Shown: positions 1,143 to 11,978 of the stretch, piece after piece
How positions within the stretch are numbered: position 1 is the first letter of the stretch
Layout of the letters: each line of letters begins with the position of its first letter
DNA from: a virus
Lineage: Duplodnaviria; Caudoviricetes
Virus record (IMG/VR): IMGVR_UViG_3300010052_000143
Location: 1,270 to 65,269 of that record
Strand: one strand, 5' to 3'
Length of the DNA: 64,000 bases
Notes under the pieces: generated by a model
Seen by the model: only the letters and a program-made list of their open reading frames with translations
What the model was told of the DNA's origin: nothing
Database searches by the model: none
Position numbers and translations under genes: made by a program

Positions 1143-1199
1143 TCACTATTGACGTGAATCAATTGGCGTTGACATGCGTGAAAGTCAATCCCTGTGTGC
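1143..1199. promoter_or_regulatory. Three TCAC-N7-GTGA-type operator sites upstream of the repressor gene
   Basis: TCACtattgacGTGA 1143-1157, degenerate site ending GTGA at 1181, TCAAtccctgtGTGC 1185-1199. Confidence 0.6.
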
Positions 1200-2600
1200 A
1201 AATATGTCGATGATTCGCTGCTGCGTGACGTCTCGCTCGTTCAACACGGTTAATGCGCGCTCGTCGTATGTTCCCTCTGCAATGATGGGATAGATCAGCA
1301 CCTGTTTCGTCTGCCCGGGCCGCGGAAGACGCATGTTCATTTGCTGCCACAGTTCGAGTGAGAAGGTCAGGCCATACCAGATCATAATGTGACCACCGTA
1401 CTGCGGATTGGTCCCGTGTCCGATCGATGCGGGATGCGCCAGCAACTTGCTGATCTTGCCCTTGTTCCAGTCGCCGATGAGATCGCCCTTGTATTCGTTG
1501 GCGACGACTGCGTCCGGGTAGCGCTTCCTGATTGCGTCCTTGTCGAATTTGAAACTGTAGGCGATCAGCAAGTTCTCACCCTGCGCCGTTTCCACCAGTT
1601 CCTCGAGCGCTTCCATTTTCGCGTCGTGAACATGCACGACAGAGCGGTCCTCGCGATACATATGGCCGTTGGCGAATTGCAGCAGTTTGTTGGCGAGCAC
1701 GCCACTTGAAACAGCCTCGACATCATGGGGCTCGCTGTAGAGCGTCTTTTCGAACTCCCGATAGTCCACCATTGCCTGGGCAGGCAGCCGTACTTGCGTC
1801 GGGATGAAGATCGGATCGTCCGCCACTTTCTCCGGCGGAATGGTCACCAGCAGATGCCCGATTTTCGACAGGATTTCGTCCTCGGCACCCGGCTTCGGGG
1901 TGACGGTATGCGTGTATTTGTCCTTGTCGAAGTAGCGCGTTTCGAAGTCGCTCTTGCTGCGGCCGAGCGCTTGACCCTGGTCGAGTAGATAGGTCTGGCC
2001 CCATAGGGACCGGATGCCCTGCGGCGCCGGCGTGCCGGTGAGCTCGATGACGCGCTCGATCTTGCGACGAGCGGTCGTCATCACGCCGAAGCGGGTCATG
2101 TTGCCACCCGGCCGCTTCTTGATGACGATCTCGCCGGCCTTGTTCACCGTGCGGACCTTGGCCGCTTTCGTGCGCCCTTCTCCCGCCTGGAAGCGGCTTG
2201 ATTCATCGATGACCACAGTGTCCCAGTACCAGTTTTCCACGGTCCTGATGTGCTTGGCGAGCCATTGGAGGTTGTCGAAATTGATCGTCGTCAATTCCGC
2301 CCGCCGCTCGATCGCGGCTATGCGCTCGTCTTCCTCGCCGACGGCGACAGCGACGGATATGCCTCGGGTGTGCTCCCACACGTCGATCTCATCGGGCCAG
2401 GTGTTCGCGGCGACGAACTTCGGCGCGATGACCAGCACATGATGAATTTCGAGCCGGTTGAGCATGTCAACCAATGCCGTGAGAGTGGCGCCGGTCTTCC
2501 CTGAACCCATCCCGCTGATGAGCAGCTTGGCACCGTGCTCGCGGGCGATCTTGGCTATGAGGCGCTGAGACGCGCGCAGGGCAGAACGTGGGCGGATCAC
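1185..2600 (-). CDS. SNF2-like (DEAD/DEAH superfamily 2) phage helicase
   Basis: GMGSGKT Walker A, DESSRF, LTGTP, HPASIGHG motifs; GTG start at 2600 overlaps upstream stop (GTGA). Confidence 0.88.
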   Translation of the reverse strand: MIRPRSALRASQRLIAKIAREHGAKLLISGMGSGKTGATLTALVDMLNRLEIHHVLVIAPKFVAANTWPDEIDVWEHTRGISVAVAVGEEDERIAAIERRAELTTINFDNLQWLAKHIRTVENWYWDTVVIDESSRFQAGEGRTKAAKVRTVNKAGEIVIKKRPGGNMTRFGVMTTARRKIERVIELTGTPAPQGIRSLWGQTYLLDQGQALGRSKSDFETRYFDKDKYTHTVTPKPGAEDEILSKIGHLLVTIPPEKVADDPIFIPTQVRLPAQAMVDYREFEKTLYSEPHDVEAVSSGVLANKLLQFANGHMYREDRSVVHVHDAKMEALEELVETAQGENLLIAYSFKFDKDAIRKRYPDAVVANEYKGDLIGDWNKGKISKLLAHPASIGHGTNPQYGGHIMIWYGLTFSLELWQQMNMRLPRPGQTKQVLIYPIIAEGTYDERALTVLNERDVTQQRIIDIFAHRD

Positions 2601-3646
2601 GCCGCCACCAGCCACGTTTCGAGCGCCGTCTTCGGCCGGCCGGCCAGTCGATCGTCGGCGATCTTCGCGTATGCCGGATTGAGTTCGATCAAGACCGCGT
2701 CGCGGCCGTGCTGCCGTGCGACCATCGCCGTTGTCCCGGCGCCGCCAAACGGATCGAGTACGGTACCGCCTGCCGGGCAGCCAGCGAGGACGCACGGTTC
2801 GATCAGGTCGGGCGGAAATGTTGCGAAATGGGCACCCTTGAAAGGCTTCGGACTGACGGTCCAGACCGACCGCTTGTTGCTCCCCAAACCACGAGCAACG
2901 TCATCAAGGCCGCTCTGATCCGACGACTCGTATTTCGCGTGACGAGGAGGAGTGCCACGAATGCGCGCGATCTTCTCTCGCGCGTTGGCGATGATTCGAG
3001 CCTTCGTGCCACTGGCGGACTGTGCGCCGGCCGCTCGATAGTCCTTGGTGTCGACGCCATCGTAACCGTCGCAGATTTGCTGTAAAAGCGCCTCGCTCGG
3101 CGGGTTTTTGATCGCCTCTGCGTCGTAGAAGTAGCGCGGCGATTTTGACAGCATAAAGATGTATTCGTGCGCCTTCGTACATCGATCACGCACGCTCTCC
3201 GGCATCGGGTTTGGTTTCGACCAGATGATGTCCTGACGCAGATACCAACCATCCGCCTGCAGGGCGAAGGCAACACGCCACGGGATGCCGATCAGGTCTT
3301 TCGACTTCAGCCCAGTGTAGACTTTGTTGCGACCGATCGGCGAGCAATGAAGGGCTGAGACGTGCTTGCCGCCCGTATGACCGCCCCACTTTCCATCGTT
3401 CGCATAGCTGTCGCCAAGGTTCAGCCAAAGAGTTCCGTCATCGCGAAGCACACGGCGGACCTCACGGAACAAATCAACCATGCCGGCGACATACTCGTCA
3501 GGGGTTTGCTCGAGACCCATCTGACCGGTGACACCATAGTCGCGCAGGCCGAAATACGGCGGCGAGGTCACGCAGCAGTGGACGCTGGCATTGGGCATCT
3601 GCCGCAGCACGTCTCGACTGTCACCGACAAGAATTCTGACGGTCAT
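2597..3646 (-). CDS. DNA amino-methyltransferase (N4-C/N6-A, beta class)
   Basis: VTSPPY motif IV near N-terminus, LDPFGGAGTT motif I near C-terminus; ATG 3646 overlaps upstream stop. Confidence 0.9.
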   Translation of the reverse strand: MTVRILVGDSRDVLRQMPNASVHCCVTSPPYFGLRDYGVTGQMGLEQTPDEYVAGMVDLFREVRRVLRDDGTLWLNLGDSYANDGKWGGHTGGKHVSALHCSPIGRNKVYTGLKSKDLIGIPWRVAFALQADGWYLRQDIIWSKPNPMPESVRDRCTKAHEYIFMLSKSPRYFYDAEAIKNPPSEALLQQICDGYDGVDTKDYRAAGAQSASGTKARIIANAREKIARIRGTPPRHAKYESSDQSGLDDVARGLGSNKRSVWTVSPKPFKGAHFATFPPDLIEPCVLAGCPAGGTVLDPFGGAGTTAMVARQHGRDAVLIELNPAYAKIADDRLAGRPKTALETWLVAA

Positions 3647-3960
3647 ACCAGGAGGCTCTGCAACTTGAGGAAGGCGATCGTGTCGGTGCCAGAGTGGAAG
3701 ACATGCACCGTAACGCCGCGCTCGGCGAAGCGCGGAAACTCCAGCGCTTGACCCGCTGACAGCTTCCCCTTCCCCCGTTTCATCTCGATCAGGAGGATCT
3801 TGCCGTAACCGACGAACATGCGATCCGGGCAACTGCGCCTACCGATGTAGGCGATTTTACGCACCAGCCAGCCGTGATTTTCCGCCCACGCAACCGCGTC
3901 GATTTCCTCGTTTGCTTCAAGTTCGCGCGTCTCGAAGTCGAAGTCCTTGGCGACCTTCAT
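3643..3960 (-). CDS. VRR-NUC domain nuclease
   Basis: GRRSCPDRMF...LLIEMKR..GKLSAGQ; canonical position between polymerase and helicase. Confidence 0.85.
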   Translation of the reverse strand: MKVAKDFDFETRELEANEEIDAVAWAENHGWLVRKIAYIGRRSCPDRMFVGYGKILLIEMKRGKGKLSAGQALEFPRFAERGVTVHVFHSGTDTIAFLKLQSLLV

Positions 3961-4664
3961 TTCAGCAATCTTTCCTCTCCGCCCGAATGCCCGACACCGC
4001 GGTCAAGTCGCACCCGTTCTGCTGCGGCGACGCCGATCTTGTAGGTAGAGTCGAGGTCGCGGCTAGGTCGGCCACGGCCCTGGTCAAGTTTGATTTTTTC
4101 GAGTGCCAGTGCCTGGACGATCAGGGCATCGCGCAGCACGATCAGTCCCGTGCCGGCAGGCTCAGGCGGGCGCAGATCGCGGATGCGTTGACGCAGTGTG
4201 TCAGCCATCCCGTCGAGGTAGGCAAAAAGCCGCTGGCGCCGTTTAGCAGGGTTCAGCAGTTGGTTGCTGCGATCAAGGACGCGGCGGCCGTCGCGCATCG
4301 CACGCGCGCAGATGTCGAGCAGATACTTCGCCACCTCGACTTCGTGGTCAAACCCGAAGAAGGTGATTGTGACTGGAGCGACGCCTGGCCTCGATGTCCA
4401 GTACCGGCAACCTGTCAGATACGCGATGCCATCAGCGGGCTTCCAAAGGCGTTCACCTACAATGTCTTCCACGGCTTCGGTGTGCCGTGAGAACGGCTGC
4501 TCGCGCAGGGCAGCTTCGTCGAGCGTCATGTTATGCTCGCGCAGCATGCGACCAAGCATCTCGGCGGCGGTGATGGCCTCCTCTTCGGTGCAGCCATTTT
4601 CGCGGGTCATGGCCGCAAGCGCGCGGACGCGGCGGGCGATGTTCTCTCGAGACATCTTGCTCAT
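3957..4664 (-). CDS. DUF2786-family protein
   Basis: IARRVRALAAMT..NGCTEEEAITAAEMLGRMLREHNM N-terminus; ATGA overlap with polymerase stop. Confidence 0.7.
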   Translation of the reverse strand: MSKMSRENIARRVRALAAMTRENGCTEEEAITAAEMLGRMLREHNMTLDEAALREQPFSRHTEAVEDIVGERLWKPADGIAYLTGCRYWTSRPGVAPVTITFFGFDHEVEVAKYLLDICARAMRDGRRVLDRSNQLLNPAKRRQRLFAYLDGMADTLRQRIRDLRPPEPAGTGLIVLRDALIVQALALEKIKLDQGRGRPSRDLDSTYKIGVAAAERVRLDRGVGHSGGEERLLK

Positions 4665-6697
4665 GCCGCCCTCAGCCATTCGAGCAGCACCGGCAGCGCG
4701 TTGGCCTTCGTGATGCGCAGCGGCTTCCGCGGTTCGATCTTCGGCCCGTAGTATCCCAAATCCGTCAGGATGCTCTCCGCTTCCGCGACATAGCGGTCGT
4801 AGTCGACATCGTCCGGAAACTCGTCAGGCAACCGCATGCATTCGATTGCACCGTCGCTCTTGGGCACCTTCTTGAAGTTGCCGGTGGTCGGATGCGGCAC
4901 CGCATCGAAGATCGGCTGCCCACCAACGCCCCAGTAGAATCGAACGGTCTTGCCCAGATATTCATCGCGCCAGGTTGCGCCCTTCGACGCCTTGATCACG
5001 GTGACGAACTGCCGGATGTCCCGGCAGGCGCGAATGGTCTCTGCCACCGGCGTGCCGTCCTTGATCCGCGCCAGCGCCGCGTCGGAGCAGATCGTCGCCT
5101 GCGGATTCTTCATCAACTGGCCGCGCACCGGGTCGTGGTCATCCGGATGCTCATTCCAGGGATTGCCGAGCGGCCCTTTGCGCTTGTGGCCACCATCTGC
5201 CTTCAGCGCGAAATACGAATTGACCGACTGGTTGTAGACGGCCTTGTATTCGCCGAACTCGAGGTCGAAAGCTGTGTCACGCTCCCATTGCGCGCAGACA
5301 TCTGCCAGCAGCGACGGCTTCAGGCTCTCCCCGTTGAGCCCGCCGAAATGTTCGCGCGGGCATCGGAACAGCACACCATCGGTGTTGCCGCTGACGACCG
5401 GAATGCCGGCGCGCTCGGCACGCTCGATCAGCATCAGCAGCGCCAACTGCCCTGTCAGGGTCACCGAGATCATCAGGTGCGGTGCGTAGAGAACGCTGTA
5501 TTTGCTGCCGAGCTTCCCATAGACGCCGTTGAGCGAAATCTTGAGGCCCTTGTCTCGGACCTTACATTGCTCGGCCTCGGCTTCCAGCTTCGCACGCTCA
5601 GCCTCGTCGGTGACCTTCTTTAATTCGGCTTTGATCGCTTTGGCGCGCTTCTTGGCCTTCAGACGGTCGGCCTTTATCTCCCCATAAACATCGAGAAATG
5701 GCCTACCGAGCGCCTTCGGGTATAGACCGAGCATCAAGATGATCGCCGGGTATTGCGATGCCACGTCGGCGTCAATCAGCACATGTTCGTCGTCGCTGTG
5801 GACTGCCCGATTACTTTCCGTCGAATGCAGCCCGCCGATCCCCATCTGATAGGTCATGGCGCCGATCGTCACAGTGGCCTTGGCGAGCCAGTCCGGCATA
5901 TTCACCTTGCCATCGGCCTGGACCATGAAGTCGGTCTCACGCAGACGGTCGACGATCTCCTGTAATTCGGGCGTTTCGAACCTCATGAACTCGGGCACCG
6001 GATATCGGAACATGGTGCCGGCGCGCACCTCGGCGCGTTGTGCCTTCTGCCCGGACAATTGCTCAACCCGCGACTTGACGATCGTCTCGCCAATCTGGCT
6101 GTCGGATTTGCACATGAAGTTCTGGCCGTAATACGGACCCAACGCGCGGCGGAGGTCCAGCGGCTCTTTCAGCGCATTCCAGAGATTTTCCGTCGCGTCG
6201 AGGTCGGAATGCAGGCAGTAGTGGGCGATCTTGTCCATCTGCTCTGACGTCGGACGGATATCAGGGTCGTAGGGCAGATCCTGCAACTGCTTGCCGTGCA
6301 TCCGGCCGTTCAGCGCCTTGAGGCTGGCGAAGGCGTTCGGCTGCGGCTCGATCAGGTCGATGTGGCGCTTCTTCACCTCGAAGGGAATGCGGATGCCGAG
6401 GAAGTCTTCAACGTCCCACCATTTGATGCCGCCCTTGATGATGCTGTCGCTGGCGCGTTTCAGCTTCTCGTTGGTGACGCCTTCCTCGAGCGAGTACCAG
6501 ATGATCGGCAGATCGTAGGAGAGGCTGTTAAAACCGACCGTCTCGTTTCGCATGAGGATGCTGCGCACGTAGTCTCGGTCGTAGATCGGTTGGCGCCGGC
6601 TGAATTCGACACCGACGCGCTTGCCGTCTTCGATCCGCTTAAAACCGATATAGAAGAAATCCCAAAAGGTCTCCACATCGAGAAGGATGGTGCTCAT
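4661..6697 (-). CDS. Phage DNA polymerase, family B-like, with 3'-5' exonuclease domain
   Basis: Exo I LDVET; polymerase motifs DVASQYP, KISLNGVYGK, GNTDG. Confidence 0.88.
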   Translation of the reverse strand: MSTILLDVETFWDFFYIGFKRIEDGKRVGVEFSRRQPIYDRDYVRSILMRNETVGFNSLSYDLPIIWYSLEEGVTNEKLKRASDSIIKGGIKWWDVEDFLGIRIPFEVKKRHIDLIEPQPNAFASLKALNGRMHGKQLQDLPYDPDIRPTSEQMDKIAHYCLHSDLDATENLWNALKEPLDLRRALGPYYGQNFMCKSDSQIGETIVKSRVEQLSGQKAQRAEVRAGTMFRYPVPEFMRFETPELQEIVDRLRETDFMVQADGKVNMPDWLAKATVTIGAMTYQMGIGGLHSTESNRAVHSDDEHVLIDADVASQYPAIILMLGLYPKALGRPFLDVYGEIKADRLKAKKRAKAIKAELKKVTDEAERAKLEAEAEQCKVRDKGLKISLNGVYGKLGSKYSVLYAPHLMISVTLTGQLALLMLIERAERAGIPVVSGNTDGVLFRCPREHFGGLNGESLKPSLLADVCAQWERDTAFDLEFGEYKAVYNQSVNSYFALKADGGHKRKGPLGNPWNEHPDDHDPVRGQLMKNPQATICSDAALARIKDGTPVAETIRACRDIRQFVTVIKASKGATWRDEYLGKTVRFYWGVGGQPIFDAVPHPTTGNFKKVPKSDGAIECMRLPDEFPDDVDYDRYVAEAESILTDLGYYGPKIEPRKPLRITKANALPVLLEWLRAA

Positions 6698-6985: not shown

Positions 6986-7588
6986 TCAAAAATCGAAATC
7001 GTTGACTTTGGTCGGCGTCGTCGGAATCGGAATTCCGACCTCGGATTTCCGATTCCGCAGCCCCTGCCAGTAGACCGAGACCCACGTCGCCTGGTGACGA
7101 GCGTCATCGAGTGCGGTGTGCGCGGTGCCTTCGAGCTTGCCGTTGAACGGCACAATACCGTCGGCCAAATCCTTGATCGTGCGGCAGTCACGCACGTTCC
7201 AGAATTTCCATGGCGCGGGCTTCTCAAGGATGCGGCCAAAGGCATATTCGAGGATCGAGATGTCGAACGATGAACCATTGCCCCACGGTCGAATGTCGGA
7301 ACCGTGCTTCAGGCAGAACTCGTAGAACTTCTCAAAGACGAGCGGCGCCGGGTTCTTGCCGCGCACGACCTTCTGCCGTGCGGCGTCGCCCTGCCCCAAC
7401 CACCAGCGGATCGTGTCGCCGGAGGCGCGGCCGAAGCGCATCGCGTCGGCAATGTCTATCGCCGCATCAAAGGTCTCGCCCAACGCACCGGTGTCCGGAT
7501 CGAAGTAGATCGCGCCGATGGCGACGACGGGCGCGTTGGGCGCAGTGCCGAGGGTTTCCAGATCGATCATCAGGTGTTTGAACGTCAT
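6986..7588 (-). CDS. DEDDh 3'-5' exonuclease (DUF5051/exonuclease VIII-like)
   Basis: HLMIDLETLG, WGNGSSFD, RDCRT, HTALDDA motifs. Confidence 0.85.
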   Translation of the reverse strand: MTFKHLMIDLETLGTAPNAPVVAIGAIYFDPDTGALGETFDAAIDIADAMRFGRASGDTIRWWLGQGDAARQKVVRGKNPAPLVFEKFYEFCLKHGSDIRPWGNGSSFDISILEYAFGRILEKPAPWKFWNVRDCRTIKDLADGIVPFNGKLEGTAHTALDDARHQATWVSVYWQGLRNRKSEVGIPIPTTPTKVNDFDF

Positions 7589-9087
7589 ACCAAAAGCTCC
7601 ATGTCCTCGATCACGCGGCCAGCAGCCAGATCAGATGCGCTTGCGCGGCAGGCGACGATGAAATCTGTCGTGGCTTCCGCGTCGACCGCGTTGCCGTAGG
7701 CTTTGAGCATGCCGACGCGCGACTTGCCTTCGAAGGCGCTGCCTGATCCCACTCGGAAGGCAGCGCCATCAACCAGCGGGAATGACTCGGGTTCAACTGG
7801 CCGCCACTTTCCATCTCGGCAGAAGAGCCAATCAGCATCTGCCCAGAAACCGTTAGTCGGGCCGGGCTGTCCGTAGCCCACGCCTGCACCTGCATATTCA
7901 AGTCGCTCAGAGACACGCCCATCGACTGCGAGCCGCGCGCCATGCTCTCGCGTTTCCGTTCCAGAAAGCGTTCGGGCGTCCCGTTCGCCTGTTGCACGAC
8001 CGGCGTCGCCCAACTCGCAAGCTGAACCAATCCGCCCATCAACGGTTCGCCCTTCCGAGTCCCGCCCCGTGATGTCTGTCCACCGGTCATTGTGTTCGGA
8101 GTCGGCCAGTCGGCCAGTTGCGCTCCCATGTTCAAAGTCATGTTCGGGGCGAAGGGATCGTATTTCTCCCCGCGTCTCGCGTCCGTCGTCGTCGTCGTCG
8201 GCCAGCCCGCTAGATTCGCCTGCCTCGGCAACTGGTCGAAACGATCCTTCCCCGTATCCAGTCTCGGCGCGATGTCCGCTCCCGAATCCTTCCAGTCCCT
8301 GGTGGTGGTGGTGGTCCAGCCGGCCAGTTGCGCCTGCTCGGTCAGGTAGAGCGGGGTCGATGTCTGCCCGTGCTCCCGCAACCGTTTCTCCGCTGTCCGA
8401 TCCAGGCACTGCTGACTGCGTTCCCGCTCGGCAACCGTCGGCGTATTCCACCCAGTCAACGCTCCGCCCGCTTGGTCCGGCCCACCGTTCGATCCATCCG
8501 TCGCGCGCGGGGTGTTCCACCCCGCGCGGTCTTGCACCTGCCGCAGGTCGTAGATCGTAGGCGTAGATGCGGAGTCTTTGCCGGATGTGCGGCGCCCCAC
8601 TGCCCGCAGAGCAGGTATCGAGCGACCCGATGGCGTATCCCTCCGCTTCCAGGTCAGTCGATACAAGGTCGAGCCAGCCGAGGCCGTCCTTGCTCGCAAC
8701 CTGCTCTCCAAGAAATCTGACAGGGCGTCGCTCTCGGATGAGGTGGAGGAGTGAAGGCCATAGATGCCGCTCGTCATCCATCCCGCCGCCTTTGCCTGCC
8801 GCGGAGAAAGGTTGGCAGGGGCAGCTTCCGGTCCAAACAGGAGTGTCATCCGAGACGCCGCTGCGACGGAGGGCGTAACTCCAAACTCCGATGCCAGCGA
8901 AAAAATGAACCTGTCGAAATCCTCGGAGGTCATCTCCGACAAGATCCTCGATGCTTCTACGATCGACGAAGCCCGGAGCGATGGCACCAACTCGGATGAG
9001 GTTTTCCAACCAGTCGGCTGCATAGGGGTCAATCTCGTTGTAGAGGGCGAAGGGAGCAATGTGGACGGCGGGAGTGTGGAGGGTCAT
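7585..9087 (-). CDS. C5-cytosine DNA methyltransferase, alpha-type polypeptide (motifs I-VIII and X)
   Basis: FFAGIG (I), GSCPCQPFS (IV), EQV (VI), HIRQRL (VIII), LKAYGNAV (X); no clear motif IX in this frame. Confidence 0.85.
7611..8777 (-). CDS. Nested alternative-frame polypeptide, putative beta subunit of the C5 MTase (frame open to 9059)
   Basis: 482-codon open frame inside the MTase gene on the same strand; [18 protein letters not shown] resembles motif IX; seven W-x-T-(P/T) repeats; start at 8777 is a guess. Confidence 0.65.
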
Positions 9088-9523: not shown

Positions 9524-10219
9524 TCAGAGGTCGAAGTCGTTGGAGGCCGACTGCTTCTTCTCGGCCGGCTTGGTGTCGAAGCCATCGTCGTCGGAGACGC
9601 TGTCGAAGTCATCATCGTCGACATAGACACCGCCACCGCCGAGCCGATCCCCCTCTTGAAGCGAACGCACGGCCTCCACCGAGCACGTCAGACGCGCAGT
9701 GCCGCCGTTCTCCGTGCCGTAGAAGGAAATGACAGCGTCACAGTATGTGCCGTTGTAGACGATCTCGTTGATGCGGTTCACATCGTCGAGGATCTTCTTG
9801 TAACGGTCGCGAATCTGCGGACGCTGTTGGCCGCCCTTCGGTCCCTTGGCAGCCACGACGAGATTGCCGGCATAACCCTTGTAGATTTCACCGTCATCGG
9901 ATTTGAACCGGTCACCGCGCTTGAACGAGATGTTGTCCGGCTTGTCGTCCCACAGGGTCTTCCACCAGTCTTCCGGCCGCTTGAATTCACGGCAGGCGGC
10001 CTTGAGCGCAGAGATGACCGCTGCCTTGTTGCTCTCGAAGTGCTCGGCGTAAGGGCCGTCCTTCTCGATGATGAAGTTGGACCCATGCTTCGGCTTCGCT
10101 GCCGGGTCTTTGTTCTTCTTCGGCAGCGTCGCGACCTGCAACGAATCTGCAAACGAAGCGCGAACGCGCGTCAACGTCACGGTGCGGCCTGTCTTGTCTT
10201 TCTCGTTTACTTTGCCCAC
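9524..10219 (-). CDS. DUF2815-family single-stranded DNA-binding protein
   Basis: VTLTRVRASF N-terminus, NGTYCDAVISFY, acidic tail; downstream of DUF2800. Confidence 0.8.
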   Translation of the reverse strand: MGKVNEKDKTGRTVTLTRVRASFADSLQVATLPKKNKDPAAKPKHGSNFIIEKDGPYAEHFESNKAAVISALKAACREFKRPEDWWKTLWDDKPDNISFKRGDRFKSDDGEIYKGYAGNLVVAAKGPKGGQQRPQIRDRYKKILDDVNRINEIVYNGTYCDAVISFYGTENGGTARLTCSVEAVRSLQEGDRLGGGGVYVDDDDFDSVSDDDGFDTKPAEKKQSASNDFDL

Positions 10220-10248: not shown

Positions 10249-11511
10249 TCAGAGGTCGTCGAACTCATCCTCCCACCGCACAAGTGCGGGTTTGGCATGA
10301 GATTCAGGAACGAGCTTCGGCTTGCCCGGCGCTCGATCGAGAATTGCTTGCAGGGCGTCCCAGGTCTCGGGATGGCCCGTTTTGCGCTTGCCGGGCTTCA
10401 CGACCGTCTCGATGTCGGTGATGCCGATAAGCTGACGCGGCTTGTAGGCGGCGTCACCGAGCGCAGCAGTCAGCAGCGCTGCGGCCTTCGCCTGGTCCGT
10501 GAAGTAGCGGTCGCCGAGATCGCCTTCGACGGCTTTCGAGCCAGGATCGGGCCTGCCATCGACGGCAGCACGCAGCGAGTCCTCGTGAAGCGATGCGAGC
10601 CATGCACGGATTTCCGACGCGTGCTTGACGATCTGCCAGCGGCGGGACGGTGTGATCGTCAGGAGGTTCGGAAGTTTCGCTTCGTCGGCCTGCAAATCTT
10701 CCAGATCCTCGACACACATATCGAGCATCCACTTGTTGCGCGCCGGGCAACCGCCGTCCGCCTTCTTCACCTCGCACCAACGGCAGGCAGCCTCGCTGGG
10801 TGCGAACTCGATCTCCCCAGTGACGTTCAGGATTTCGAACAGACCGCTCGTGCCAATGCGACGAATTTCCACGTTGCCCGACGCGATCTTCGCGTAGACC
10901 GCCTTCATCTCGTCGCCGAAGGCCAGAAGCTCATCGAGCGAGACTTCCCAGAACTTCATCCCGCCGGCGCGCGGCTGGTCGATGTTCATCACCACGCGAT
11001 CGACGTCCGGCTGCCCGAGGTAGTGCCACGCGCCGAGGGCGTACAGCCGAAGCTGTTTGTTATCGGTTGCGTCGACGGGCTCACCCGCTCCATATTTCAG
11101 ATCGCTGATGAAAAGCGTTCGGATCAGGCCCTCGATCCACGCCGTATCGCATGTGCCGAATTGGCCGGGCAGCCAGGGCGAGAGGTCCACGCGGATTTCG
11201 ACCAACGGATTTGCGGTGTGCTCGCGGACCCAGTCGATGCCTGTCTGCAGATGCGAGGCCATGTCCTCGTCGACTGTGAACTCGTATCCGTCCGCCTGCA
11301 TGGAGAGGCCGACGAAGTGATGCGGATCGACACCGAACTCCAAGCACAGTTCGCGCACCTCATGCGCCACGGTGCCCTCGGCCGCGTAGACCGACGAGTC
11401 GCGCTCCGGCACGATGCCAGCGGCGCGCAGCTTGTCGATCAGCGACGCCGACGCAGTACAGGTCGACCAACGGCTACATGCTGACGGGGAAAGGCGGGCG
11501 TGTGCTGTCAT
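10249..11511 (-). CDS. DUF2800 Cas4/RecB-like exonuclease
   Basis: HARLSPSACSRW..C, AAEGTVAHE, FGTCD, DLKYG, NKQLRLYALG, CRWC. Confidence 0.85.
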   Translation of the reverse strand: MTAHARLSPSACSRWSTCTASASLIDKLRAAGIVPERDSSVYAAEGTVAHEVRELCLEFGVDPHHFVGLSMQADGYEFTVDEDMASHLQTGIDWVREHTANPLVEIRVDLSPWLPGQFGTCDTAWIEGLIRTLFISDLKYGAGEPVDATDNKQLRLYALGAWHYLGQPDVDRVVMNIDQPRAGGMKFWEVSLDELLAFGDEMKAVYAKIASGNVEIRRIGTSGLFEILNVTGEIEFAPSEAACRWCEVKKADGGCPARNKWMLDMCVEDLEDLQADEAKLPNLLTITPSRRWQIVKHASEIRAWLASLHEDSLRAAVDGRPDPGSKAVEGDLGDRYFTDQAKAAALLTAALGDAAYKPRQLIGITDIETVVKPGKRKTGHPETWDALQAILDRAPGKPKLVPESHAKPALVRWEDEFDDL

Positions 11512-11978
11512 TGACCGGGTTTCCCGGCAACCAATTCCCGCAAACGCTGCACAGCGGCAGTCTGATGGGGGACGCCGAGCATCTTCCAAAGAGTCGAAAG
11601 GGCAGACGTCGCTGATTGTGCCGCGATACTGTCGGACGAGTATCCCTTTGCCCAATGAGGACGCATCGCCTCATAATCTTCGATTTTCCTATTCGCCTCA
11701 GCGAGTTGGGCTTTCAGCCGGACAACTTCGGCACTGTTGACATGCCTACGTCCCTCATTGAGCAGTGCGTCCGCAACCTCGTAGGCAACAATCGCAATAT
11801 CCGTCGGCGACTTGTCTGCTTTACCTCTTACGGTCCCCGCCATCGCGATCAACCCAACAGAAGCCTGCCCCGCGAAATAGTCGCGGCGCGACATGCCGAC
11901 AGACACGGGAGCAAAGTCGCGCGAACGCGCATCGATCGGTGTCGGGAAGGCCGGCCCGCCGTCGTTGTTCGTGCTCAT
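11508..11978 (-). CDS. Conserved phage hypothetical protein
   Basis: GGPAFP...GMSRRDYFAGQA motif common in phage early proteins. Confidence 0.65.
   Translation of the reverse strand: MSTNNDGGPAFPTPIDARSRDFAPVSVGMSRRDYFAGQASVGLIAMAGTVRGKADKSPTDIAIVAYEVADALLNEGRRHVNSAEVVRLKAQLAEANRKIEDYEAMRPHWAKGYSSDSIAAQSATSALSTLWKMLGVPHQTAAVQRLRELVAGKPGQ

Follow-up and report, generated by a model that had tools for sequence, protein, structure and literature searches.

A phage gene open in two reading frames and the two-chain C5 methyltransferase that it probably encodes

The DNA considered here, hereafter the window, is a stretch of 64,000 nucleotides (positions 1,270 to 65,269) of the IMG/VR record IMGVR_UViG_3300010052_000143, a provirus of 65,269 bases that is rated 96% complete. 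On its minus strand lies a DNA methyltransferase (MTase) gene that is open in two reading frames and probably encodes a C5 MTase made of two chains, alpha and beta. Frame A, which encodes alpha, occupies 7585..9087 and gives 500 amino acids from an ATG. Frame B, which holds beta, is frame A +1, offset by one base, and was called mechanically from a TTG as 7611..9059 (482 amino acids). A sequence-only reading of this DNA had described two same-strand frames of 500 and 482 codons with a 1-nt offset; this is confirmed, and the opening of frame B in fact extends over 490 codons, beginning at 9083, with a TGA upstream at 9086-9084 that overlaps the ATG of frame A. The third frame contains 20 stops across the same bases, and the GC content around the gene is 58-68%. 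The features of the gene are the following.

7585..9087, minus strand: alpha open reading frame (ORF), 500 amino acids, with motifs II/III-like, I, IV, VI and VIII, a long linker and motif X
7611..8933, minus strand: beta ORF, 440 amino acids from the ATG at 8933; the ATG column is common to the closest relatives
8934..8949, minus strand: possible ribosome-binding sequence of beta, GAGGA at 8949-8945 and GGAG at 8937-8934
8812..9048, minus strand: stretch under constraint in frame A alone, covering alpha residues 14-92 (YNEID, HFFAGIG, up to PCQ); third-base fraction 0.54
8803..8823, minus strand: motif IV, CPCQPFS, which includes alpha's catalytic Cys; double constraint sets in directly after PCQ
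8584..8811, minus strand: first doubly constrained segment, alpha residues 93-168 (end of motif IV, VI, VIII) and beta residues ~41-117 (NLSPRQAK ... RRTS)
7869..8519, minus strand: beta's seven W-x-T-(P/T/D) modules, their W lying at 8519, 8450, 8318, 8204, 8108, 8012 and 7880
7696..7866, minus strand: second doubly constrained segment, alpha residues 408-464 and beta ARLT..SG..ML..GS..ME..GGQLNP..WLM..P..W
7749..7802, minus strand: motif IX-like segment of beta, of the type L-x-P-x-x-x-x-W-L-M-G-x-P-x-x-W
7684..7698, minus strand: probable motif X, YGNAV, alpha residues 464-468; Y464 and N466 are invariant

The sequence-only reading took both frames for parts of a C5 MTase. In a hidden Markov model search frame A passes the Pfam family DNA_methylase (PF00145) with 37 bits against a cut-off of 22, and frame B has no Pfam match. 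The Pfam match of alpha is confined to residues 84-177; with NCBIfam dcm it scores 28.7 bits, under the cut-off of 100.65, and it matches phrog_363 over residues 11-489 (E 3e-67). A profile of 54 alpha relatives aligns to M.HhaI residues 72-175, covering motifs IV-VIII (E 7e-15), and PCQ (motif IV), EQV (VI) and HIRQR (VIII) are invariant or nearly so among these relatives. The HFFAGIG segment aligns weakly with motif I of M.HhaI. The motif order of alpha is not canonical, as the II/III-like YNEID and VDRRSIEDL precede motif I (8887-9042, minus strand), and only ~25 residues separate motif I from PCQ. The arrangement suggests that the strands of alpha that bind S-adenosylmethionine (AdoMet) stand in permuted order compared with M.HhaI.

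An AlphaFold model of alpha is confident at residues 11-182 and 410-490, and residues 183-405 are disordered, with a predicted local distance difference test score (pLDDT) of 34-45. The folded part is matched by Foldseek to M.HhaI and other C5 MTases. The disordered part (7873-8541) is unconserved and enriched in Gly, Ala, Arg, Asp and Glu. Neither profile conservation nor the structure model places in the alpha chain the variable region and motif IX that belong between motifs VIII and X. The earlier description of the outer frame, with motifs I, IV, VI, VIII and X, a low-complexity middle and no motif IX, agrees with this, motif X being read from the sequence YGNAV. Beyond YGNAV the model continues with a confident helix at residues 470-488; the phrog_363 match extends through it to 489, and the Pfam and PDB profile alignments stop short.

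Beta consists, in order, of a variable N-terminal tail, a conserved block (NLSPRQAK ... RRTS), the seven W-x-T-(P/T/D) modules, the motif IX-like segment and a tail of 45 residues. The nested frame had been said to end in a motif IX-like segment; the segment is present at 7749-7802, and the tail follows it. The bases that encode the modules double as the disordered linker of alpha. A collection of 5.8 billion proteins holds more than 2600 relatives of frame B, all of them unnamed or 'hypothetical' and none with a Pfam family, and an ESM Atlas search returned unnamed viral clusters only. Frame B does match three PHROG families, two of which are labelled DNA methyltransferase. A model of beta alone is confident only at a helix and hairpin formed by residues 65-113 (pLDDT 82-91), and moderately so at residues 320-400. 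In a set of 149 beta-type proteins, each has between 1 and 7 W-x-T-P modules, mostly 3 or 4, and window beta stands at the top of this range with six modules by pattern and a final W-A-T-D unit. The kinds of module also vary in order between beta-type proteins, although the types could be defined only roughly (single-linkage clustering chained most modules into one cluster). Judged from the sequences, this variation is compatible with exchangeable recognition cassettes.

The end of beta shows further variation. Its tail (7611-7640, minus strand) ends in LIWLLAA and that of the relative P0006 in LIWALAA, and across the wider family the tail is unconserved. In P0014, a beta relative of 572 amino acids, motif IX is directly followed by an inserted HNH nuclease domain (PF01844), behind which the tail continues in its ordinary form.

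The distribution of the two frames was followed by tblastn against 50,697 phage records. Frame A was found in 407 records; in 246 of them the match spans 80% or more of the 196-residue N-terminal query, and the others are mostly generic matches to motifs IV-VIII. Frame B was found in 216 records, at the places of frame A. Matches to frame A come in two pieces, corresponding to the N and C ends, and matches to frame B span 86-99% of the query. The phages epsilon15, BcepC6B, Haboob and vB_PR2a keep both frames open along almost all of the gene, and the same two-frame layout occurs in the E. coli phages Golestan and CarlMeissner (GC 0.48) and in the Rhodobacter phage RcMcDreamy. Both frames are likewise open in ~75 of 85 related loci (80 from IMG/VR), which have a GC content of 0.49-0.69 and 10-31 stops in the third frame; in these ~75 loci, frame B opens 58-220 bases after the start of A and stops 5-50 bases before its end. 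The homologues are not near-identical, with a mean pairwise nucleotide identity of 0.69-0.74. In close and distant relatives alike, the nested frame, which the sequence-only reading had taken for a real subunit, is therefore open rather than broken, and it is under purifying selection.

Two of the related loci (L047:1494-2871 and L065:1494-2745) carry an insert of 130-170 residues in alpha before the motif X block. The insert begins where beta has already stopped, that is, in DNA free of the second frame.

Selection on each frame was examined in a codon alignment of 67 non-redundant N-terminal parts, in which columns 1-78 correspond to residues 14-91 of window alpha. In these columns frame A is highly conserved, with free variation at its synonymous sites, and frame B is unconserved; the N-terminal tail of beta over 8812..9048 is open, with a residue conservation of 0.50. 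Between column 80, which follows Pro-Cys-Gln, and column 157 (APHI), frame A hardly varies at synonymous sites, as illustrated by Pro CCT in 58 of 67 genes, Val GTT in 65 of 67, Val GTA in 51, Glu GAA in 63 of 64 and Pro CCG in 63. The fraction taken by the commonest third base at conserved degenerate columns is 0.54 before column 79 and 0.82 after it (Mann-Whitney p 2e-9), and the conservation of frame A itself is no higher in the frozen part (0.86 vs 0.79). At the C end, codons are again fixed from GPTNGFW to LRAY (Val GTT 57/58, Pro CCC 55/55, Thr ACA 47/47, Phe TTC 49/49), and synonymous variation is back from GNA onward, where the tail of frame B is unconserved and ends. In a +1 overlap the third base of a frame A codon is the second base of a frame B codon, and frozen third bases in A therefore mean selection on the B protein. 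Both frames are under purifying selection across a large phage family.

The middle of the gene, ~220 codons in which only frame B is conserved, has also been kept free of stops in frame A. Across 59 non-redundant genes, frame A has a single stop in this region. Synonymous reshuffling of frame B, with the B protein kept fixed, leads to an expectation of 3.4 frame A stops per gene with the region's own codons and 5.8 with the codon usage of flanking genes. For the middle 276 codons of the window, 5.4 or 9.2 stops are expected in frame A and none is seen, and none of 300 shuffles was stop-free. Frame B is treated in the same manner further upstream: it has 127 stops in columns 1-36, close to expectation, a single one in columns 37-79 against an expected 28, and none in columns 80-159 against an expected 112.

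The point at which frame B becomes closed to stops lies near a candidate start codon. A frame B ATG is found at columns 25-42 in 66 of the 67 genes, mostly at column 29, 35 or 39, and stops vanish beyond it. In the relatives, GGAG or AGGAG often stands 6-9 nt before this ATG. The Asp codon of frame A that forms the commonest B ATG is GAT in 51 genes and GAC in 14, whereas other Asp codons prefer GAC, and the Arg codon two positions upstream of this Asp is often the rare AGG, which builds AGGAG. In the window, the start of beta is probably the internal ATG at 8933.

A nested second chain has a precedent in M.EcoHK31I of E. coli HK31 (recognition sequence YGGCCR; Lee, Kam and Shaw 1995), a C5 MTase of two polypeptides. 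As described for this enzyme, the coding sequence of beta lies entirely within the alpha gene but is read in a different frame; beta bears motif IX and is needed together with alpha for methylation (PMC2836561, PMC3404938). The sequence-only reading had stated the precedent as these sources give it. As in M.EcoHK31I, window beta (7611-8933) is nested within alpha (7585-9087) in frame +1, and by motif reading alpha carries motifs I-VIII as well as X, while beta carries motif IX, the alignment of which is weak. In M.EcoHK31I, according to the same sources, it is alpha that has the predicted target-recognition domain, beta giving only motif IX, whereas in the window the repeat modules are on beta. 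Also unlike M.EcoHK31I, window beta has an extra helix-hairpin domain that is encoded over motifs IV-VIII. The idea of an M.EcoHK31I-like phage MTase is consequently supported by the nested frame and by motif IX on beta, and needs correction in that the recognition-like modules are on beta and not on alpha. The overlap, which had been called unusually long, indeed measures ~1.3 kb, or 88% of alpha, but the two-frame layout is the normal state of a large family rather than a peculiarity of one phage. The likeness to M.EcoHK31I that is drawn here is one of layout.

M.AquI (CYCGRG) offers a further comparison. It is a C5 MTase that is split within the variable region, the second chain carrying motifs IX and X, and it is described as two-subunit, not as nested (PMC3404938). 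The window differs from M.AquI in that motif X is kept on alpha. Because of this position of motif X, alpha must be read through the whole of beta.

Phage relatives display the same parts in nested, single-chain and split form. The Paenibacillus larvae phage Shelly (GC 0.46) has a 'g55 internal gene', SHELLY_56, that is nested in the +1 frame of the MTase gene SHELLY_55 and carries W-x-T-P modules and GQLNPEWVECLMGFPIGW. By hhalign the beta profile is homologous to this internal gene, with a probability of 97.3 (E 2e-11), and GQLNPEWVECLMGFPIGW is where the motif IX-like segment of beta aligns. The Shelly pair differs from that of the window in that its nested gene is shorter (234 amino acids) and its alpha has the canonical motif order, with I before II and III. 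Two genome papers on such phages contain no discussion of the role of the Shelly nested gene; a Paenibacillus phage paper of 2018 lists MTase genes without comment. The mycobacteriophage Phasih has a single-chain MTase with L-P-T-P repeats and then LHPAFPEWMMGWPAGW, directly before motif X. In the mycobacteriophage Kingmustik0402, gene 79 carries motifs I-VIII and ends right after VIII, and gene 78, which starts at the end of gene 79 in the +1 frame, carries three PTP modules, IX and X, its frame being open back into gene 79. The beta profile aligns with gene 78 over the modules (hhalign probability 79, E 1.5e-5). This pair of genes 79 and 78 resembles the M.AquI type and shares PTP modules with window beta.

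The single-chain MTase genes of actinophages (Phasih, Gudmit) still carry a +1 ORF from motif IV on, with L-P-T-P modules; the loci concerned in Phasih, Gudmit and Kingmustik0402 are L088 1265-1636, L089 1265-1771 and L091 892-1987. The +1 ORF of Gudmit matches 324 phage records. Matches of frame A in Gram-positive phages were considered as controls without frame B and were set aside, as most are generic IV-VIII matches and those that were opened carry a +1 ORF.

The best explanation of the locus, to which we give a probability of roughly 0.7, is a two-chain C5 MTase of the M.EcoHK31I kind with its recognition modules in beta and an overlap of ~1.3 kb. Alpha would be the catalytic body, with the AdoMet and catalytic motifs at its N end, motif X at its C end and between them a linker of ~220 residues, the sequence of which would be a mere shadow of frame B. 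The linker must stay stop-free because ribosomes need to reach motif X. Beta, a protein of 440 amino acids, would most likely be translated from the mRNA of alpha, with ATG 8933 as an internal start, and would comprise the helix-hairpin domain, the seven W-x-T-P modules and the motif IX-like segment. The modules and motif IX would be the parts that stand between VIII and X in a one-chain enzyme. Alpha and beta would then assemble into the active enzyme, with target recognition and motif IX coming from beta. The reasons for counting beta as a part of this enzyme are that alpha is without the variable region and motif IX and beta has modules and a IX-like segment, together with the relatives in Phasih, Kingmustik0402 and Shelly and the M.EcoHK31I precedent.

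Several points weigh against this explanation. Beta gives nothing above noise with Pfam, NCBIfam or the sequences of the PDB, and no match among PDB folds, where the best Z is 4.2, on the helix-hairpin. Modelled alone, it reaches a mean pLDDT of 59.7. Motif IX is assigned to beta from a short motif and from an alignment that is weak; against LHPAFPEWMMGWPAGW of Phasih, hhalign aligns 24 columns with E 0.004 and a probability of 8. Shine-Dalgarno spacing in the window is mediocre, with GAGGA 11 nt before ATG 8933 and GGAG directly adjacent to it. The 59-67 genes compared are related and so are not independent trials. A few loci break the pattern by indels or stops that may be errors, decay or real variants: a stop in Pro-Cys-Gln in L020, a stop in the linker in L024, the N part of beta fused to the C part of alpha in L042 and L050, and alpha fused to the C part of beta in L039. 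Finally, it is from sequence that we infer the translation of beta, its assembly with alpha, the activity of the enzyme and the role of the modules.

Other explanations have to be set against the two-chain enzyme. Frame B could be a by-product, either a high-GC open frame, permitted also by the conservation of frame A, or a gene that sequencing errors or compensating indels have broken, and with a GC content of 58-68% this deserves consideration, since long shadow ORFs are common in high-GC genes and occur on the opposite strand here. Yet the layout persists at a GC content of 0.46-0.49, the middle of the gene is conserved in frame B only, the synonymous sites of A are frozen exactly where B is conserved, and shuffled genes contain several stops where none is seen. 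The conservation of B, the frozen synonymous sites and the avoidance of stops at low GC thus cannot be explained by a shadow ORF or a broken gene, and a by-product has next to no probability. A pseudogene with compensating indels, or a sequencing error, was ruled out, the layout being the norm of the family.

If frame B is a true coding sequence, its product could still be part of one chain. Two programmed ribosomal frameshifts, from A to B after motif VIII and from B to A after motif IX, would restore the canonical order, which the succession of conserved blocks along the DNA (A, B, A) resembles, and there are relatives, as in Phasih, that join PTP modules, IX and X within one frame of a single chain. 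Such a double frameshift would need neither frame A open through the middle nor frame B open from column 37 to motif VIII, but both are kept stop-free. Frame B moreover has its own conserved ATG, often with a Shine-Dalgarno sequence, and the two doubly constrained segments are conserved in both frames over the same bases, including the alpha block that the shift from B to A would skip; on these grounds the explanation is very improbable. Less remote, though still unlikely, is that frame B encodes a real protein unrelated to methylation, such as a regulator or an anti-defence factor, that was overprinted on the MTase gene, and that alpha works alone. Overprinted viral genes often have unrelated functions, and the want of a Pfam, NCBIfam or PDB match for beta, together with a helix-hairpin that has no nameable counterpart, would accord with such an origin. 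It leaves an alpha without a conserved variable region and motif IX, however, and the motif IX-like segment of beta aligns, weakly, with motif IX of a single-chain enzyme. PTP modules resembling those of beta belong to actinophage MTase chains, and the precedent for a nested beta is itself an MTase subunit.

Multispecific C5 MTases of Bacillus phages (M.SPRI, M.Phi3TI, M.Rho11sI) have tandem recognition modules between motifs VIII and IX. These are single chains in one frame, and the number and order of modules vary between related phages. The family of the window is similar in its variable module number (1-7) and order, which is a likeness of layout. As a tentative extension of the two-chain explanation, beta may be a row of exchangeable target-reading cassettes, one sequence being read per W-x-T-P module, and a seven-module multispecific MTase may shield its phage against numerous restriction systems simultaneously; a single evolutionary series may then link the forms met in phages of Actinobacteria, Firmicutes and Proteobacteria, with single-chain, split and nested enzymes as its stages. 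This extension is possible but doubtful. If it is true, the placement of the modules in a second frame would let phages swap them with the catalytic chain untouched, as the linker need only remain stop-free.

If both chains are made, the ~1.3 kb overlap would rank among the longest regions of same-strand dual coding in bacterial viruses, and what was the single case of M.EcoHK31I from 1995 would be the rule in a family that hundreds of sequenced phages share. This family includes epsilon15, BcepC6B, Kagunavirus, Vequintavirus and Rhodobacter phages as well as thousands of metagenomic genes, and a literature search found no published description of its two-frame layout. Within the gene, two segments of ~230 and ~170 bases are selected in both frames simultaneously, which makes it a natural test case for two folded proteins that share codons.

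Annotation has largely overlooked one of the chains, as the sequence-only reading had foreseen. Most phage records annotate a single coding sequence (CDS), and the IMG calls on this DNA hold only a GTG-started piece of beta of 308 amino acids (7611-8534, minus strand), the 500-residue alpha and the 440-residue beta being absent. In vB_PR2a the annotated CDS is frame B, under the name 'putative metabolic enzyme'. Because gene callers retain one frame, often alpha and sometimes beta, methylome predictions, assignments of the REBASE type and assays of cloned genes may miss the specificity subunit.

The gene lies between an exonuclease and a single-stranded DNA-binding protein (SSB) in a replication module on the minus strand, in which the following genes were recognized.

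1185-2795, minus strand: helicase
2597-3832, minus strand: amino-methyltransferase of the N6/N4 kind (phrog_67, E 3e-77)
4661-6697, minus strand: DNA polymerase
6986-7588, minus strand: exonuclease
7585-9087, minus strand: the two-frame MTase gene
9524-10219, minus strand: Gp2.5-like SSB
10249-11655, minus strand: second exonuclease

With its amino-methyltransferase (N6/N4) at 2597-3832, the replication module has another DNA methyltransferase besides the two-frame gene. The stop codon of alpha (TGA, 7587-7585) and the start codon of the downstream exonuclease gene (ATG, 7588-7586) overlap as ATGA, which is a usual sign of translational coupling.

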